Below are positions 1 through 32,511 of a stretch of 32,511 bases of DNA, one piece after another (position 1 is the stretch's first letter; each line of letters begins with the position of its first letter). Both the position numbers and the translations under genes were made by a program. The notes below the pieces were generated by a model, which was not told the DNA's origin, did not search any database, and saw nothing but the letters and a program-made list of their open reading frames with translations. Source of the DNA: a virus; the IMG/VR virus record IMGVR_UViG_3300025632_000008; one strand, 5' to 3'.

Positions 1-127
1 ATCATACACCTGTTCGATCAGAATGTTGAGCTAATCATTGAAGGCTTGGCTGCTCGGTCGGGCCGAGAGTTTCAGGAAGTTCTTTTACTTTTACAGAAAG
101 GTAGGAAACTACATGGCACACACGGTA
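1..127. repeat. Terminal direct repeat, copy 1 (identical to 32385..32511)
   Basis: Read base by base: atcatacacctgttcgatcag...catggcacacacggta occurs at both window ends. This implies a 32,384-bp unit. Confidence 0.9.
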
Positions 128-3753: not shown

Positions 3754-3813
3754 GTTGTTCTCCTTTGTTATCTGATACTAGCCTATCGCTTATGTGCGAC
3801 TTAGGCAATATGA

Positions 3814-3830
3814 AGTGACGTTACGTCACT
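3814..3830. promoter_or_regulatory. Palindrome AGTGACG-TTA-CGTCACT (GTGACG-N3-CGTCAC motif, instance 1)
   Basis: Perfect inverted repeat 60-75 nt upstream of the exonuclease start. On the minus strand it is followed by CATATTGCC. Confidence 0.45.
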
Positions 3831-4092
3831 CGTACTTTCCGTACTTCTCAAAGTCTTCTTCGCTGAGGTGTTGGAATTTCTTGAGCCGCTGTTTTGTTAT
3901 ACCCTTAAGATATGGCTCACCTACCGCTTCGCCATTACGAATACGCTGCGCAATAATCTTATCGCTGTCCAGCACATAGCCAGACCTCTTGTACTCACGG
4001 GCCATGACAGGAGAGCTTGCTGCCTTACTGACATGAGCGTCCCATACAGATGGTCTTGCTGCATCACTGAGCTTGGTTGTTTTATATGTCAT
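3826..4092 (-). CDS. Hypothetical protein, 88 aa
   Basis: ORF with an ATGA overlap to the upstream 59-aa ORF. No recognisable motif. Confidence 0.6.
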   Translation of the reverse strand: MTYKTTKLSDAARPSVWDAHVSKAASSPVMAREYKRSGYVLDSDKIIAQRIRNGEAVGEPYLKGITKQRLKKFQHLSEEDFEKYGKYE

Positions 4093-4268
4093 GGTCTACC
4101 TACATCCATAAGGGTAACTGCTACCTGATCGTCACCCTTCAGTTCACTTATAAATTCTTCTTTGGCTATGCGTTCTGCGTTAGCAAGGGAGTCAGATACA
4201 ATCGTAATGTCCCTGAATATAATCCCTTCTACTCTGAGCGTATAAGCTATTGGATGTGCGCGACTCAT
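4089..4268 (-). CDS. Hypothetical protein, 59 aa (below the ORF-track cutoff)
   Basis: Hand translation gives MSRAHPIAYTLRVEGIIFRDITIVSDSLANAERIAKEEFISELKGDDQVAVTLMDVGRP. ATGA overlaps at both ends fill an otherwise empty gap. Confidence 0.55.
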   Translation of the reverse strand: MSRAHPIAYTLRVEGIIFRDITIVSDSLANAERIAKEEFISELKGDDQVAVTLMDVGRP

Positions 4269-4480
4269 GTTCGTACCTTCGATGGGCTGTAATACTGTGC
4301 AATGCGAGTGCCGCTAGCGGTCTTGACCATTACCTTGTCGATCTCCATGCCTTCGTCTTTGAGGTCTTTGATTCGCGCCGCTAATCTAAAGCATCCGAAT
4401 GTTTGCAGTGCATCAATTGCTGTGATGCGATAGCCTTGCTTGAGATACGCTTTAATCTCATCTGTTTGTTTTATAGTCAT
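4265..4480 (-). CDS. Small winged-HTH DNA-binding protein
   Basis: The pattern ITAIDALQTFGCFRLAARIKDLKDEGMEI..G.RIAQYY resembles small phage wHTH proteins (HTH_39-like, from memory). RBS aaggagaacaca. Confidence 0.6.
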   Translation of the reverse strand: MTIKQTDEIKAYLKQGYRITAIDALQTFGCFRLAARIKDLKDEGMEIDKVMVKTASGTRIAQYYSPSKVRT

Positions 4481-4490
4481 TGTGTTCTCC

Positions 4491-4961
4491 TTAGACTAAG
4501 TTTTCTTTTGCATACAATCCAATGAGTGCGGCTTCTGCTCGTCCGTCATCTTTAACTCGTTTGAAATAGTGTGCATGGTTAGGGAAGCAGAGCTTCGCTA
4601 GTCTTCTACTTTCACCCTTGTCTCTTGAAAGGTCAAAGTATTTCTTCCACTGACGTGGCGTCACATATTTTATAGGTAGCTTTGAAGCAACGATACCCAT
4701 CTCTAGCTGACCAAAGCCCTGTCCGAATCTGAATGTACTGCTAACACCTTGATTAGGCATAGCATTTACACTCTCGATCACAGCTAAGGCTGGTTTGTTT
4801 CTTTGGTTAGATAGGATTGAAAGTAACTCAGGTAAGTTAATTAATGTCTTACCCTTTGGTGATTGGGCTACTGGAATATCGTAGATAACTAAGCTGTCTG
4901 TTTCTGTTTCATATATGCTGACTGCTCCTGTAAATCCGGGGTCGATTCCATAAATGAGCAT
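4491..4961 (-). CDS. RuvC-like Holliday junction resolvase
   Basis: GIDPGFTGAV at the N-terminus, VIESVNAMPNQGVSSTFRFGQGFG, VTPRQWKK and DDGRAEAALIG follow the RuvC-fold catalytic layout. Confidence 0.8.
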   Translation of the reverse strand: MLIYGIDPGFTGAVSIYETETDSLVIYDIPVAQSPKGKTLINLPELLSILSNQRNKPALAVIESVNAMPNQGVSSTFRFGQGFGQLEMGIVASKLPIKYVTPRQWKKYFDLSRDKGESRRLAKLCFPNHAHYFKRVKDDGRAEAALIGLYAKENLV

Positions 4962-6245: not shown

Positions 6246-7094
6246 TTAGATTACGTTCTCACCTACCATTGAGGTAAACAGTTTGTGATTCATTGCATTG
6301 CTGATTGCTATCTCGCGATTGTAACGTGCAATCTGTGGTGACTTAAGGTCATTGGTATGCGTGGCCCAGTGGGTCAGGCAGTTATACAATGCCCACTTGT
6401 TGTGACCGAGATCCATCTTCTCACGATCCCAACCTGAGATAAGATTCTCAAGTTGCTTCTCGTTTGTCTTGGTCACTTGCTGCTGCTTGGTTACTACCTT
6501 GCATATGGTTGACCGAAAGAACTGCTCGACCTGATCGTTGTTTAATCTTGTCTGCATCCATGATTGCCACTGCTTGCTCCGTCCCATGAAATGTTCCGCA
6601 CCACCTATGATCTTGGCAGCGCTCCCGTCTACGTTAACTGACGCTGTGTGCTTGAAGCGTGACTTCGCAATAGCATCTGGTGTTGTGCATCCATTCAAGC
6701 ACCACAGTCTGAGACCATTGGCTTGCTGAGAAAAGGACCATGATCCGTCATAGCTATTGAAGAAGCTGACACGGAACTGAACGTAGTCACCTACTGCTGG
6801 CTGCTGCACTAGATCAGGAAAGATGATCTCACCTCGTAGCTTACGGCCATCTTCGATTACATCTACGTTGACCTCATAGTCACTGGTCAGCTTGCTTGCT
6901 TTAACTCCATCAAGGATAGAGTTGACTACATCATCGTGCGGTATCATTCGATAGCGTGACCCATGCAAGCCGAGTGTCTTGCCTGTGTCTGTGCGTACGA
7001 TGCACTTGTGATCTGGAATAAGCTCACCGTCTTGAGTAAAGACTGGCTGCTCTTCTACTGGAAAGTTGTAGCTGTTGGATTGAAAGTCTAGCAT
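6246..7094 (-). CDS. DUF932/DUF945-like phage/plasmid protein
   Basis: The patterns GSRYRMIPHDDV, FFNSYDGSWSF and GLRLWCLNGC match the DUF932 family layout as I remember it. Confidence 0.7.
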   Translation of the reverse strand: MLDFQSNSYNFPVEEQPVFTQDGELIPDHKCIVRTDTGKTLGLHGSRYRMIPHDDVVNSILDGVKASKLTSDYEVNVDVIEDGRKLRGEIIFPDLVQQPAVGDYVQFRVSFFNSYDGSWSFSQQANGLRLWCLNGCTTPDAIAKSRFKHTASVNVDGSAAKIIGGAEHFMGRSKQWQSWMQTRLNNDQVEQFFRSTICKVVTKQQQVTKTNEKQLENLISGWDREKMDLGHNKWALYNCLTHWATHTNDLKSPQIARYNREIAISNAMNHKLFTSMVGENVI

Positions 7095-7282
7095 AGCGCG
7101 TTCTCCCTTGCGTCTATTGTTTCTGAGATCATAAACCTAAGATCGTTCCTATCTTTGCCGAACATTTTGATGTTCATTTCATTGCCATTACCATCAACAA
7201 AGCTGATTTCTTTGACGGCAAAGTTGTCATGGATTGTTACTTTAACCCTGACGTTTGTTACTCTGTGTGCTGATACTTCCAT
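7088..7282 (-). CDS. Hypothetical protein, 64 aa; first gene of a leftward operon
   Basis: Strong RBS aaggagaacaca. Overlaps the next gene by 7 nt. Confidence 0.6.
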   Translation of the reverse strand: MEVSAHRVTNVRVKVTIHDNFAVKEISFVDGNGNEMNIKMFGKDRNDLRFMISETIDARENALC

Positions 7283-7312
7283 TGTGTTCTCCTTAGAAGT
7301 TTATTTAAAGTT

Positions 7313-7346
7313 TATACTATAGTATATGGCGGGACGCTTTCTGCAA
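7313..7346 (-). promoter_or_regulatory. Candidate leftward promoter (TTGCAG-16-TACTAT) overlapping the 14-bp perfect palindrome TATACTATAGTATA (7313-7326)
   Basis: The minus strand reads ttgcagaaagcgtcccgccatatactatagtataaac. The palindrome covers the -10 candidates. It lies 30-60 nt upstream of the start at 7282. Confidence 0.3.
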
Positions 7347-7376
7347 CATTTGGAATGAATCCATTCATAAGTTTGG

Positions 7377-7463
7377 TTAGCCCAGCGCAACGAAACCTGT
7401 TACAGAAATTACCAGAACCGCGATATACATAACGAAGATTAGCTTGTCCTCATGGTCGCCCAT
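7377..7463 (-). CDS. Possible 28-aa membrane micro-protein
   Basis: aagggggcttcaacATG, then MGDHEDKLIFVMYIAVLVISVTGFVALG (one TM). The 78-aa track ORF upstream of this ATG runs through a hairpin and repeats and looks spurious. Confidence 0.4.
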   Translation of the reverse strand: MGDHEDKLIFVMYIAVLVISVTGFVALG

Positions 7464-7478
7464 GTTGAAGCCCCCTTG

Positions 7479-7505
7479 TTGATAGAGTTGATAGAGTTGA
7501 GAGTG
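7479..7505. repeat. Tandem 9-bp repeat: TTGATAGAG x2 plus degenerate TTGAGAGTG
   Basis: Read directly. Related copies are GATAGAGTTGA at 6915-6925 and TTGATAGAGT at 8382-8391. Confidence 0.7.
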
Positions 7506-7507
7506 GT

Positions 7508-7525
7508 GAGGGGCCGAAGCCCCTC
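7508..7525 (-). terminator. GC-rich hairpin with a UUCG tetraloop after the 137-aa gene (no U-tract)
   Basis: The minus strand reads GAGGGGC-TTCG-GCCCCTC, 7 nt after the stop at 7532. The missing T-run makes it a stabiliser, processing site or weak terminator rather than a canonical one. Confidence 0.4.
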
Positions 7526-7531
7526 TGAAGG

Positions 7532-7945
7532 TTATGATGCGAGGATGCGCTTGATTTCGGTGTCGAGGCCAAGGCCGTCTGAAGTGAAGGTGCGCTTGGG
7601 CTTGTGTTGCCACACTTCGCCTTGGGTAACGATGGTATAAACTTCTAGGTCAGCATTGTGACGCTCAGTAAGTTCATCCATCTCGCGTTCCATCGAAAGA
7701 TAGAGGCGAGCTTTCTTTTCAATGCGGATGTCTACGACCTCTGAGCCTTTGGCTGGAGCGAGTTCAGCCATGTCGTTCTTGACGATCGACATCTGTTCGC
7801 CCTTCCATTCGATTGAATTGAAGCTGGTGTAGCAAGCGTCCTTGGCAATTTGAGTGCGAAGGTATTCATTGTCAGAACCTTTATGATGGTTAATTACATC
7901 TAGTTTGAGTTGAACGAGTGTCGGTGATGTGTTCTTCTTAGTCAT
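7532..7945 (-). CDS. Hypothetical protein, 137 aa; first leftward gene next to the non-coding island
   Basis: The ATG at 7945 is preceded by acaggagaactagac. The track's longer 169-aa version would read through this RBS. Confidence 0.65.
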   Translation of the reverse strand: MTKKNTSPTLVQLKLDVINHHKGSDNEYLRTQIAKDACYTSFNSIEWKGEQMSIVKNDMAELAPAKGSEVVDIRIEKKARLYLSMEREMDELTERHNADLEVYTIVTQGEVWQHKPKRTFTSDGLGLDTEIKRILAS

Positions 7946-8555
7946 GTCTAGTTCTCCTGTAGAATCGAGAGGTCCGTCCCCTCGGTGAAGACCCAGAGAC
8001 ATGCCCACAAATCCCAGCTTGCTGGGGCTTGACGTTCGCAACTGCTTTCCTCACCAGACGCAGGCTGGACTAAGCACAGAAGAGCCACACACACTCAGAT
8101 CTGAGCCGCCAATGGAAAGTAGTTGCGAATGTTTTGTGGAGCTTGTCACGCAGGGCAAGACGAGGGGCGGCCGAGCGATACAGGAGAACGGCAAACATGG
8201 CTAAGACAGAACACTGAGCCGTAAGCGAGTTCAACTTAAACTTGATGTTTTTTAGTAGGCCATCATTTTAGAAGGTTCTGACAATGGATGCCTTTGCCGA
8301 AGATTGCAGGACGTTGGCTACCCAGCTGAGATTCAAGAGGATGGAGGGGTGAGCAGTTGGAGGGAGGAAGGGGCGATATGGTTGATAGAGTGATCCAAAG
8401 GTGTAGAGGTTGTAGACATTGAAAAGAGAGCTTGCAGATAGCTTGTGGTGGAGCGTGAGACTTACTGAGTGTCGCAAGGATGACTTGGAGTTTAGAGCAT
8501 TGTTAGACAAGCGTGGCAACCAGCCCAAGTGGATCTTTCTTTAGCGGGCTTGGCC

Positions 8556-8585
8556 TTGACGCTGAAGCTATGCTCATACTTTAAT
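8556..8585 (+). promoter_or_regulatory. Weak candidate rightward promoter TTGACG-18-TTTAAT
   Basis: Hexamers read by eye, with an 18-nt spacer. The CTGAAG/CTTCAG inverted repeat (8562-8567 and 8586-8591) brackets it. Confidence 0.2.
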
Positions 8586-8654
8586 CTTCAGAGAGCTTTG
8601 GCCGCTAAACGCTGTCAACAGCTAAACGAGGTACTATGATACCTAAATGAGGTA

Positions 8655-8678
8655 GTGACGCTGCGTCACATATTGACA
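8655..8678 (+). promoter_or_regulatory. Palindrome GTGACG-CTG-CGTCAC (instance 2) abutting a perfect TTGACA hexamer
   Basis: Perfect 7-bp arms at 8655-8661 and 8663-8669. TTGACA at 8673-8678, about 80 nt upstream of terS. No good -10 at a 17-nt spacing. Confidence 0.4.
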
Positions 8679-8756
8679 TAGATCAACGAAATAGTGCTGT
8701 GTGGGGGGAGAGAGGGAGAGGGGGGCAAGCATGAGGATAAAGGATAGAAAGTACGG

Positions 8757-9137
8757 ATGACTAATGTTCCGAATATAAGAAAGCTGACTGAGAAACAGAC
8801 AGCGTTAGTTGACACCATTGTAGCAAACGGGTGTACGATAGCTAAGGCAGCAGAGCTAGCTGGATATAGTAGCGGTGAGTCGGGAAGAGTAACTGCAACC
8901 AAGACGATGAAGCTACCACATGTGCAACAGTATCTGATGCAGAGGATGAATGAGGAATTTGGGCTAAGTGCTACCTTGGCAGCTGGGACAGTGAGACGGC
9001 TAGCTACGGGGGCTAAGTCTGAGTACGTTCAGCTAGAGGCTAGCAAGGATTTACTGGACCGTGCTGGGTACAAGCCGATAGACAGGTCACAGGTACAGGT
9101 TGCTGGTGACATTAAGGTGTCAATAGATCTCGGCTAG
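8757..9137 (+). CDS. terS: Terminase small subunit (Terminase_2-like)
   Basis: LTEKQTALVDTIVANGCTIAKAAELAGYSSGES...LDRAGYKP follows the LTxKQ..F...N...A...AGYS pattern of small terminases. Confidence 0.8.
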   Translation: MTNVPNIRKLTEKQTALVDTIVANGCTIAKAAELAGYSSGESGRVTATKTMKLPHVQQYLMQRMNEEFGLSATLAAGTVRRLATGAKSEYVQLEASKDLLDRAGYKPIDRSQVQVAGDIKVSIDLG

Positions 9138-32369: not shown

Positions 32370-32511
32370 ATGAAGGACGCAGAGATCATACACCTGTTCG
32401 ATCAGAATGTTGAGCTAATCATTGAAGGCTTGGCTGCTCGGTCGGGCCGAGAGTTTCAGGAAGTTCTTTTACTTTTACAGAAAGGTAGGAAACTACATGG
32501 CACACACGGTA
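32370..32511 (+). CDS. Junction-spanning 49-aa ORF (continues to the stop at nt 133-135 of the window start)
   Basis: TAGATG coupling to the upstream gene. Translation is MKDAEIIHLFDQNVELIIEGLAARSGREFQEVLLLLQKGRKLHGTHGIR. It is complete only if the genome is circularised. Confidence 0.4.
   Translation, partial: MKDAEIIHLFDQNVELIIEGLAARSGREFQEVLLLLQKGRKLHGTHG
32385..32511. repeat. Terminal direct repeat, copy 2 (identical to 1..127)
   Basis: See copy 1. Confidence 0.9.

Follow-up and report, generated by a model that had tools for sequence, protein, structure and literature searches.

What does a packed podophage genome keep in 811 bp without a gene? The window analyzed here, the whole stretch of 32,511 nucleotides, holds a circular marine podophage genome of 32.4 kb, whose circular assembly is based on a 127-nt overlap sited away from the palindrome described below. 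The gap (7946 to 8756) is bounded by the ATG of a minus-strand gene (7945) and the start of terS (8757), and at 811 bp it is by far the largest in the genome, the runners-up being ~250, 137, and 136 bp. An earlier note on this DNA described the gap as non-coding, a description that is borne out: the coordinates were confirmed, and when relatives were searched for a conserved protein-coding gene at this position, no intact gene was found and the architecture proved to be strongly conserved. The four mechanical open reading frames (ORFs) within the gap (54 to 86 aa) have no PHROG match, and no stop-free frame is kept across the gaps of relatives, the longest stop-free stretch being 37 to 112 aa in a frame that varies.

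A mirror copy of the first early gene

On the + strand, positions 8197 to 8590 align end to end with the sense strand of the neighboring gene (7532 to 7945, minus strand), with ~70% identity (blastn E value of 4e-31). This gene, the first of the early block, encodes 137 aa and is designated gene137; its degenerate inverted copy is designated psi. The similarity includes the SD and the terminator and is broken by stops and indels, so that the earlier statement that the gap has no protein-like translation stands as regards conserved ORFs but misses the broken gene copy. The mirror-image nature of half the island is indeed absent from the earlier reading, and the functional unit reaches beyond the gap, from 7508 to 8620. 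We are confident that this unit is a conserved quasi-palindrome of ~1.07 kb (7508 to 8620), composed of gene137, an apex, and psi and followed by the promoter P_R and the terS 5' leader, that the island supplies its non-coding half, that psi tracks the gene, and that the + strand is competent to form a hairpin. Psi has neither a conserved frame nor a protein family match, and tblastn of relatives recovers no second copy of gene137 at the protein level, bar one weak 30% match in one lineage.

The base of the left arm is a terminator-like GC hairpin, GAGGGGC-TTCG-GCCCCTC (7508 to 7525, minus strand), directly 3' of the gene137 stop codon. It occupies this position in every lineage, with a T run after it in most, and is mirrored in the psi arm. 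The antisense of gene137 (7532 to 7945) forms the rest of the left arm. The apex (7946 to 8196) is GC-rich and palindromic and opens with a helix between 7951 to 7961 and 8179 to 8189, paired at 11/11 positions, which covers the AGGAG that is the SD of gene137 (7954 to 7958). The enclosed spacer (7962 to 8178), a 217-nt palindrome that the earlier note had seen as a hairpin-rich left part, is GC-rich and self-complementary, with ~70 Watson-Crick pairs and equal folding on both strands; within it is a conserved apical inverted repeat (8032 to 8050 and 8114 to 8132; ..GTTCGCAA..TTGCGAAC..).

The right arm is psi (8179 to 8620, + strand), a G/T-enriched copy of gene137 in inverted orientation that takes in its SD, ORF, terminator, and 3' flank. 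A tract previously described as C-depleted and G-rich exists and is the middle of this decayed copy, while an AT-rich patch with a T6 run corresponds to two TTTTAG boxes (8250 to 8271, + strand; 8250 to 8255 and 8266 to 8271). These boxes, of general form YTTNTAGTA and in two copies, are insertions relative to the gene, are the only invariant block in psi and in the island, and are predicted to bulge from the psi arm. The direct repeats of GCTAAACG exist as reported and bracket the mirrored 3' flank of the gene, but they are unconserved as repeats and were dropped as a feature of their own.

Homologues of gene137 number 25, with identity down to 37%, and share invariant DACYTS and RH.AD motifs. 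The AlphaFold model (pLDDT 89.7) is an all-alpha helical hairpin. No significant family or structure match was obtained; PDB sequence search and Foldseek returned only generic helical hairpins (best E value, 0.3 in PDB and 1.4e-3 in BFVD, the latter to uncharacterized proteins), and tblastn against cultured phages gave no match.

Folding of the two strands

As the differences between gene137 and psi are mainly C>T and A>G, the + strand folds as one nearly continuous hairpin and the early-mRNA strand much less so. RNAfold gives -604.1 kcal/mol for the + strand as one hairpin and -429.5 kcal/mol for the mRNA strand, a difference of 175 kcal/mol; DNA parameters give -278.3 and -209.9 kcal/mol, respectively, a difference of 68 kcal/mol. 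The late-sense strand is the more stable in 21/21 lineages, by 94 to 238 kcal/mol (RNA parameters). From this folding, the island could yield a large structured single strand, in line with the earlier suggestion of a large non-coding RNA. A curated RNA family was sought and not found: Rfam 15 has no match at gathering score in the window and gives only chance-level matches (E > 0.5) at permissive E values across 7700 to 9000. A scan for tRNA and tmRNA found none, and blastn and megablast against INPHARED gave no match. A scan of a genome collection returned one match, a metagenome-assembled contig labelled Methanobacteriota, which is taken to be mis-binned.

Conservation and coevolution of the arms

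Nearly every relative with enough upstream DNA carries the inverted copy, even at 39% protein identity. Identity between the arms stays within a narrow band of 68 to 77%, and there are no young copies (>80%) in >30 lineages. The longest exact match between arms is 9 to 16 nt (21 lineages); recent gene conversion was dropped as an explanation because this match never exceeds 16 nt. Arm length varies even among close relatives, being 0, 50 to 90, 282, or 460 to 565 nt where terS is 70 to 95% identical, and in short-arm lineages the arm stops exactly at the TTNTAGTA box. A cultured phage, Pelagibacter phage Hodr, has a kb-scale palindrome at the equivalent position that extends into the terS coding sequence; its arms lie in two coding regions and are without strand bias. 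Methylophilales phage MEP301 was considered as a second cultured case and dropped, as its gene layout differs.

Transitions from gene to psi at 28 loci are strongly asymmetric, with 595 A>G and 388 C>T against 45 T>C and 39 G>A, that is, 983 compatible with G.U pairing against 84 of A.C type (~12:1). The bias is even along the arm and is also present in short-arm lineages. The G/(G+A) ratio of psi is 0.53, and four-fold-site proxies give 0.22 to 0.48. Simple mutational drift is inadequate, as psi exceeds every proxy, and a general mutational bias toward G/T was dropped because silent sites are G-poor. The G.U-type changes have no codon-position bias, which indicates that they arise on the psi side and led us to drop a robustness ratchet by synonymous toggling on the gene side. 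Transversions and indels, at ~10% each, are far better tolerated than transitions of the A.C type, a pattern that would not follow from selection for + strand pairing alone; additional selection against pairing of the mRNA strand fits it better.

The two arms also change together. Across 14 lineages, psi is 68.5 to 76.7% (~73%) identical to its own gene, whereas psi copies are 55.9% identical to one another against a random background of 52.8%. Orthologous psi copies are thus less alike than each is to its own gene, unlike what a simple decaying pseudogene would give. In nine pairs of close genomes, 64 paired sites changed on both arms against ~10 expected (odds ratio, 14; p = 2e-38). Covariation, a check that the earlier note had proposed, exceeds all controls in an unguided MAFFT alignment: paired cells make up 63.8%, against 55.6% in shuffles and 39 to 45% in slid registers, and cells changed on both sides number 1122 against 609 +/- 20, a value that 0/500 shuffles reach. 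Apex helices 35 to 41 of this analysis likewise have changes on both sides.

A promoter with two G runs before terS

To the right of psi lies P_R, a rightward sigma70-type promoter with a G tract (8673 to 8725, + strand), with a -35 TTGACA (8673 to 8678), a TG (8695 to 8696), and a weak -10 (8697 to 8702), directly followed by G6 (8703 to 8708), AGAGAGGGAGA, and G6 (8720 to 8725). A palindromic operator, GTGACGCTGCGTCAC (8655 to 8669), lies just upstream of the -35 box. The palindrome plus TTGACA and the homopurine G tract listed earlier are therefore real, the former being the operator and the -35 box of a promoter present in all relatives and the latter the two G6 runs. The architecture in the window is TTGACA-N18-(-10)-G6-N11-G6; TTGACA-N17/18-(TG)-10 followed by two G runs (G5-7 N3-13 G5-7) is found in all lineages examined, and it occurs only once in the genome. 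Even phages with gene137 proteins of only 40 to 60% identity share the same 23-nt G tract. One or two copies of the operator occur in the lineage of the window (WIN) and in L001, L008, L003, L019, L021, and L029. As this conserved rightward promoter and operator belong to the terS operon, the island lies within the early/late control region, as a structured control element and no ordinary spacer, which partly supports the earlier idea of an early/late switch.

A 9-codon upstream ORF (uORF), MRIKDRKYG* (8731 to 8760, + strand), read from the sequence, begins 5 nt downstream of the second G run and ends in a TGA that overlaps the ATG of terS (ATGA), an arrangement that suggests coupling to terS. 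L001 has the same layout; in L008, L012, and L003, the G run is followed by an ATG. The small terminase gene terS (8757 to 9137, + strand; PF03592, phrog_2538) is the first of the rightward operon. The G runs have equally good alternative explanations: the first may be a discriminator element for sigma region 1.2, and a short leader may use the second as its SD.

Other promoters were sought. No conserved sigma70-like promoter that would give + strand RNA across the hairpin was found in the window or 11 relatives, no leftward sigma70 promoter is positionally conserved, and the spacer and arms contain no promoter-like site. Sigma54, Bacteroidetes-, T7-, and N4-type promoters do not fit the spacer when the alignment is inspected by eye, and no phage RNA polymerase gene was found.

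DISCUSSION

The earlier note recognized no replication initiator, primase, helicase, or polymerase gene and named the island as the prime candidate origin; with PHROGs, Pfam, and NCBIfam, none of these genes was found. Recombination-type genes are present, namely, Erf, a YqaJ-type exonuclease, an SSB-like protein, and a RuvC-like resolvase. We tentatively propose that the single-stranded late-sense hairpin and the G-tract promoter P_R form a host-dependent replication start, a function that we infer from the arrangement of the locus; regulation of the early gene by an RNA is almost equally likely. For a replication start, host RNA polymerase would initiate at P_R, and the two G6 runs, which stand at the transcript 5' end and on the non-template strand, would favor a persistent RNA:DNA hybrid, as in ColE1 and mitochondrial CSBII. 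The hybrid would prime rightward synthesis with displacement of the + strand, and the displaced strand spanning 7508 to 8620 would snap into a hairpin that would mark or initiate synthesis of the complementary strand, with the T-rich TTNTAGTA bulges as candidate entry sites. Synthesis primed from P_R would displace precisely the strand of the wobble-tolerant hairpin. A difficulty is that leading-strand synthesis would start immediately downstream of the hairpin, whose exposure would have to await completion of a full round or rolling-circle replication. Hairpin formation during replication would also account for the mirror copy: template switching at inverted repeats homogenizes and lengthens the arms, and the variable arm length (0 to 565 nt) is as expected for such growth (PMC8604942, PMC13100816). 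Other points against an origin are that four-fold sites have no C>T or A>G gradient along the genome, which long + strand exposure would predict, and that a bias of the G.U type is a feature of RNA more often than of DNA. The cumulative GC-skew minimum, which the earlier note had suggested locating, does fall near 7000 to 7500 but coincides with the switch of coding strand.

Several known systems share parts of this design. Single-stranded DNA (ssDNA) promoters and single-strand origins, such as the sso of rolling-circle plasmids, the M13 minus-strand origin, and F-plasmid Frpo, are 70 to 330 nt long, carry promoter-like -35/-10 boxes in the stem, and act on known ssDNA. Like them, the present element is a non-coding imperfect palindrome with stability on one strand (the + strand, in 21/21 lineages) and reliance on host enzymes, but at ~1.07 kb it is far outside that size range, contains a coding gene, has no recognizable stem promoter, and resides in a tailed double-stranded DNA (dsDNA) phage. 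ColE1 RNA II and mitochondrial LSP-CSBII are R-loop-primed origins, the G runs of CSBII being G6AG8, and mitochondrial OL is a stem-loop. With these, the locus shares a promoter followed by clustered non-template G runs (in all lineages), a nearby strand-specific hairpin, and an initiator-less replicon; it differs in the absence of a compositional gradient at four-fold sites, and here the hybrid, the dependence on RNase H/Pol I, and strand displacement are putative. Long palindromes are also found in insect and nematode mitochondrial control regions (PMC1762429). Quasi-palindromes kept by template switching have in common with ours an imperfect inverted repeat, concerted arms, variable length, and overlap of one arm with functional sequence (PMC8604942, PMC13100816, PMC7202029), whereas here the arms are ~430 nt with a 217-nt apex, persist across 39%-identical proteins within a narrow identity band, and carry a 12:1 strand-specific wobble bias and invariant boxes of their own.

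HDV, viroids, and obelisks likewise form unbranched rods of ~1 kb with a coding arm paired to a non-coding, ~70 to 75% complementary arm, but the present rod has a fixed syntenic site in a dsDNA phage, no ribozyme or Rfam match, and its ORF on the less structured strand. The P1/P7 c4 anti-SD leaders resemble it in having upstream, same-strand sequence complementary to the first gene's ribosome-binding site (here, 8179 to 8189 with 7951 to 7961, 11/11); in our case, however, complementarity spans the whole gene and terminator, the 12:1 wobble bias favors the opposite strand, and no conserved leftward promoter lies upstream. A diversity-generating retroelement was rejected, as the repeat is inverted and of whole-gene length, the differences include C>T and transversions, and no reverse transcriptase is among the annotated genes. 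A type I toxin-antitoxin system was rejected because it needs a direct repeat in DNA; the repeat being inverted, a + strand psi RNA would be sense-like. Hairpin telomeres or inverted terminal repeats were rejected because >100 independent contigs and one cultured genome read through the apex, the assembly is circular, and no protelomerase or terminal-protein gene was found. The literature that we searched contains no description of such an element. We consider it an even call whether this is an undescribed class of phage element, a kb-scale strand-specific hairpin made of a protein-coding gene and a non-coding mirror that has stayed complementary to it through deep evolutionary time, acting as a rod-like RNA or as a displaced-strand DNA origin.

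That the hairpin works as RNA is possible, if doubtful. A late-sense transcript would then carry early-gene antisense, apex, and psi as an imperfect duplex of ~500 bp; it could come from read-through of the terS operon round the circle or a concatemer, or from an unrecognized promoter, and the duplex could mask or deliver early-gene antisense in an early-to-late switch, insulate or terminate before P_R, or persist as a stable rod bound at its UUUUAG bulges. The 12:1 excess of G.U-type over A.C-type changes in all lineages is what a structured RNA classically leaves in its transcribed strand, and the 94 to 238 kcal/mol strand difference with RNA parameters, covariation beyond all controls, the intact SD/anti-SD helix (11/11), U-rich boxes conserved directly after long helices in the manner of a terminator or protein-binding bulge, and the absence of a strong terminator after the last late gene (1157 to 1279) agree with such a role. 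HDV and obelisk RNAs provide a precedent for the maintenance of rods of kb length that carry an ORF in one arm. However, a conserved + strand promoter is lacking to the left of the hairpin in the window and 11 relatives, P_R points away from it, no Rfam family matches, and the Hodr arms, in two coding regions, have no strand bias. The wobble bias also continues unaltered past the U-rich boxes, which argues against efficient termination there, and we dropped the idea that the TTTTAG boxes efficiently terminate the functional species. That the early mRNA carries a cis-antisense leader seems very improbable: leftward transcription begun near P_R would give a ~650-nt leader complementary to psi that represses translation of the first early gene by folding back on its SD and coding region. 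The 11/11 helix that closes the apex hairpin is what such a leader would use, the GC-rich and promoterless spacer suggests that the early transcript may begin beyond psi, several lineages have, on the mRNA strand, a -10-like CACAAT/TACAAT beside the -35 box of P_R, and the mRNA strand is still predicted to form a hairpin (-430 kcal/mol); yet the wobble bias is on the wrong strand, so that variable positions are A.C mismatches in the mRNA, the leader has an excess of C and A, which pair least promiscuously, and no leftward sigma70 promoter is positionally conserved.

The long arms might also be mostly a mutational by-product around a functional core of apex hairpin, SD region, TTNTAGTA boxes, and P_R, which we judge unlikely. 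In this account, template switching at the core would repeatedly recopy the gene into the other arm and homogenize short patches, protein selection would purge gene-side changes, and anti-palindrome selection (SbcCD, recombination) would hold identity at ~70 to 75%. Published work documents that template switching homogenizes and expands inverted-repeat arms (PMC8604942, PMC13100816, PMC7202029) and that SbcCD cleaves long palindromes (PMC3315005, PMC4245961). Arm lengths from 0 to 565 nt among phages with 70 to 95% identical terS, arms that end at the TTNTAGTA box in short-arm lineages, exact matches of only 9 to 16 nt in 21 lineages, and the psi-side origin of the G.U-type changes implied by their lack of codon-position bias are all consistent with this account. 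It leaves unexpected the retention of a useless 440-nt insert in many deep lineages of a packed 32-kb genome and the narrow 68 to 77% identity band with no copy above 80% in >30 lineages, and the 12:1 bias, with a G enrichment contrary to the silent-site bias, needs selection on one strand. It is scarcely credible that psi is a common pseudogene in decay since a single ancient inverted duplication, or a real gene read by recoding or frameshift. Full-length similarity, including the SD and, in many lineages, the ATG, would suit a pseudogene, and the TTTTAG boxes resemble slippery-stop sites, but psi copies are no closer to one another (55.9%) than random sequence (52.8%) against 68 to 77% with their own genes, stops and indels differ in every lineage, no PHROG matches, and tblastn finds no second copy except the weak match (30%) in one lineage.

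The element class appears widespread in an abundant marine podophage group that includes a cultured SAR11 phage; in IMG/VR, the group comprises at least 596 relatives by terS and at least 152 by gene137. Spurious ORF calls in the mirror arm are present in existing annotations, annotation pipelines will go on making them, and assemblers and cloning hosts may break at the hairpin. If the arms are kept by selection, this would be a rare case of a kb-long nucleic-acid structure in a dsDNA virus, and non-coding sequence must follow every change in the neighboring gene, a new constraint on phage genomes. Pelagibacter phage Hodr on HTCC1062 offers a cultured model in which direct testing is possible. 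If the locus is an origin, it would explain how very abundant small marine podophages replicate without an initiator or polymerase gene.

Results

A quasi-palindrome joins the intergenic island to the first early gene

The 811-bp island at 7946-8756, between the minus-strand early block and the plus-strand late block, is confirmed and is the largest gap in the genome by gene coordinates. Mechanically called ORFs in it have no family match and are not conserved in relatives, and every sub-feature named in the earlier note was recovered at its position. An inverted-repeat search reveals concentric pairs between the island and the 5' end of gene137, the first early gene (7532-7945, minus strand, 137 aa). 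By direct alignment, the plus strand from 8197 to ~8590 matches the gene137 sense strand from end to end, as a degenerate copy with ~70% identity that is interrupted by indels and stops (e.g., ATG GCT AAG ACA GAA CAC TGA). This inverted copy, designated psi (8179-8620), also mirrors the Shine-Dalgarno (SD) region (8179-8189 versus 7951-7961, 11/11 paired), the GC hairpin 3' of the gene137 stop codon, and ~25 nt of flank 3' of the gene. The apex, a 217-nt stretch separating the arms, is itself a near-perfect GC-rich palindrome carrying the conserved apical repeat GTTCGCAA..TTGCGAAC. Judged from sequence, the functional unit is a quasi-palindrome of ~1.07 kb (7508-8620) centered near 8078, of which the island covers only the right half. 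A scan against Rfam returned no family match for the element.

The only invariant block of psi is TTTTAG at 8250-8255, followed by a second copy at 8266-8271; the AT-rich patch described earlier does exist and corresponds to these two boxes. Across relatives the motif is YTTNTAGTA, mostly in two copies 9 to 18 nt apart. It lies exactly at the distal arm end in short-arm lineages, while in long-arm lineages the boxes are insertions relative to gene137, predicted as bulges in the helix. Public gene calls of 74 aa and 81 aa fall within the mirror arm and apex of the related locus L003 (5427-5651 and 5737-5982), as also in L004 and L005; such calls probably reflect the sense-like pseudo-copy and not real genes.

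Gene137 itself represents a genuine conserved family of ~137 aa that carries no annotation, with invariant motifs H-K-G, (N)EY, A.DACYTS, Q(M), R-H.AD..VY, and GE.W..KPKR in the family alignment. The predicted fold is all-alpha with a long helical hairpin, and neither sequence nor structure searches gave an informative match. Two highly divergent members, L110 and L116, are undetected by tblastn. The family has a sole match in genome collections, a 15-kb contig (PBGS01000047.1) assigned to a Methanobacteriota MAG, probably by mis-binning of phage DNA.

The arms evolve in concert

Searching IMG/VR with the gene137-family profile identified 152 relatives, and 80 of these were retrieved; terS, the first late gene, has at least 596. 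Nearly every relative with enough upstream DNA carries an inverted copy of its own gene, starting 170 to 280 nt upstream with 68 to 76% identity across 420 to 480 nt, and the copy is retained even where the protein has only 39% identity to gene137 of the window. In some lineages the arms are just 50 to 200 nt, spanning the SD and first codons, and in a few no arm is detectable by blastn. Among 14 lineages, every psi is nearest to its own gene (68.5 to 76.7% identity), whereas psi-to-psi identity across lineages is at background (55.9% versus 52.8% shuffled) and that of orthologous genes is 61.5%. The closeness of each psi to its own gene, together with this background psi-to-psi identity, rules out one ancient duplication that has since decayed.

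Paired changes across related loci exceed their shuffle and slid-register controls. In nine independent close genome pairs, 64 paired positions changed on both arms versus ~10 expected and 11 to 29 in slid registers, and 45 of the 64 were Watson-Crick before and after. When the window's own long-range pairs were applied to an unguided MAFFT alignment of 26 sequences, 63.8% of cells were paired versus 55.6% in shuffles and 39 to 45% in slid registers. Both-side changes affected 1,122 cells versus 609 ± 20, and none of 500 shuffles attained the observed values. The arms evolve in concert.

Pairing is biased to the late-sense strand

With RNA parameters, region 7520-8600 forms a single continuous hairpin of -604.1 kcal/mol on the plus strand, versus -429.5 for the mRNA (minus) strand; DNA parameters give -278.3 and -209.9, respectively. 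The late-sense (plus) strand is the more stable one in 21 lineages, by 94 to 238 kcal/mol. This difference arises from the gene-to-psi substitution spectrum, which, summed over 28 loci, comprises 595 A>G and 388 C>T changes versus 45 T>C and 39 G>A. The spectrum is even along the whole arm, independent of codon position, and unchanged in short-arm lineages. G enrichment in psi opposes silent-site composition (G/(G+A) of 0.53 versus 0.22 to 0.48 at four-fold sites), and the apex, in which both arms are non-coding, is nearly all Watson-Crick without strand bias. At G/T sites of the gene there are 433 transversions versus 84 transitions of the missing type, while A/C sites show 983 transitions versus 763 transversions (28 loci). 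Selection on plus-strand pairing alone fails to explain this pattern; it fits best with plus-strand pairing being kept and mRNA-strand pairing being disfavoured.

A conserved rightward promoter lies beyond the hairpin

Between psi and terS (8757-9137), all lineages have TTGACA, a 17- to 18-nt spacer (often with TG), and a variable -10, directly followed by two G5-7 runs 3 to 13 nt apart. The palindrome with TTGACA and the G tract of the earlier note are thus both present and are now read as this rightward promoter region, P_R (8673-8725, plus strand). A 23-nt sequence, GGGGGGAGAGAGGGAGAGGGGGG, which occurs once in this genome, is unchanged between phages whose gene137 proteins are only 40 to 60% identical; the window's clade has in addition a palindromic operator, GTGACG-N3-CGTCAC, just 5' of the -35 box. 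No consensus promoter other than P_R occurs in the region, and the P_R transcript begins downstream of the hairpin and excludes it. Neither a conserved sigma70-type promoter for a plus-strand RNA across the hairpin nor a leftward early promoter was found. An extended -10 promoter-like site (TTAGCT-N17-TGcTACAAT, 8815-8850, minus strand) within the terS 5' coding region is directed leftward, facing P_R. Only L001 and L008 conserve this site, which may represent the missing early promoter or merely reflect coding conservation. A nine-codon uORF (8731-8760) starts 5 nt past the second G6 run, and the overlap of its TGA stop with the terS start (ATGA) suggests translational coupling of terS. Similar uORFs occur in L001, L008, and L003.

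Genome context and a cultured relative

The first and last 127 nt of the window (1-127 and 32385-32511) are identical, indicating a circular assembly and a genome of 32,384 bp. Its gene content is that of a small podophage with a T7-like structure: terS, terL, T7-type portal, major capsid, tail tube, internal virion proteins, and fibre. The late operon runs on the plus strand from 8757 across the circular junction to the endolysin at 702-1157, and the early block on the minus strand from 7945 down to 1279. The latter encodes a DUF932 protein, an HTH_3 regulator, a winged-helix protein, a RuvC-like resolvase, a YqaJ-type exonuclease, Erf, and an SSB-like protein. The DUF932/TIGR03299 "phage/plasmid-like protein" gene lies at 6246-7094; this family is frequent on plasmids and integrative elements too. 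Searches of PHROGs, Pfam, and NCBIfam detected no replication initiator, primase, helicase, DNA polymerase, or RNA polymerase.

At the convergent operon junction (1158-1278), a long-range GC stem, GTGGGTGGC..GCCACCCAC (1163-1276), encloses smaller hairpins. As no clear T-run terminator is seen there, late transcription may run into the antisense of early genes. The second-largest gap (7283-7531, ~250 bp), downstream of the gene137 terminator, holds tandem AACTCTATC repeats and, before the next early gene, an AT-rich stretch that resembles a promoter (TTGCAG-N17-TACTAT). In many relatives that gene begins 20 to 40 nt past the gene137 terminator, which must therefore be leaky or an attenuator.

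INPHARED holds no nucleotide match to the window. The nearest cultured phage by portal protein, Pelagibacter phage EXVC031P Hodr (OQ414635; 62.8% amino acid identity), has the same divergent layout, with concentric inverted repeats between 3787-4032, in terS, and 4544-4844, in the annotated first early ORF. For Hodr 3780-4850 the folding energies of the two strands are -407.7 and -405.4 kcal/mol versus -264 shuffled, with 265 to 340 pairs across the center. Both arms touch coding sequence, and strand bias is absent. Either the terS 5' coding region and the 147-aa first early ORF are mutually constrained to complementarity, or the ORF call is spurious. Since Hodr has one, a kilobase-scale palindrome at the control region extends beyond a single gene family and is not confined to metagenomic assemblies.

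Discussion

The anatomy, conservation, concerted arm evolution, and strand bias of the element are established, while its mechanism is what we infer. We tentatively favour a DNA-level role of the hairpin linked to replication, short of an even chance, because the phage must rely on host enzymes, because clustered non-template G runs come after P_R, and because synthesis primed from P_R would displace exactly the strand bearing the wobble-tolerant hairpin. Non-template G runs clustered directly behind a promoter, the arrangement seen at P_R, promote persistent RNA:DNA hybrids at both ColE1 and mitochondrial CSBII. However, the G runs equally fit a discriminator plus SD, four-fold sites show no compositional gradient, known single-strand origins are far smaller, and a G.U-type bias is more characteristic of RNA. 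That bias and the U-rich boxes would be accounted for naturally if the hairpin worked as RNA, a doubtful but possible reading that lacks a promoter.

A further reason for favouring the replication role is that a hairpin formed during replication offers a known mutational route, template switching, by which inverted-repeat arms become homogenised and longer (PMC8604942, PMC13100816); this would account for the mirror gene as well as for arms of variable length. Arm-length variation is also explained if the arms are mostly a mutational by-product around a small functional core; this we consider unlikely, and it leaves the narrow identity band and one-strand bias unexplained. The bias runs opposite to what an anti-SD function in the mRNA leader would require, and that reading is very improbable.

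Our literature search found no description of an element of this type, in pelagiphages or in any other phage. Closest in concept are template-switch quasi-palindromes, single-strand origins and ssDNA promoters, R-loop-primed origins, and rod-like RNA replicons, each of which shares some features with the element but fails on others. We file it as a quasi-palindromic control or origin region, and give about even weight to its being a functional element of a kind hitherto undescribed.
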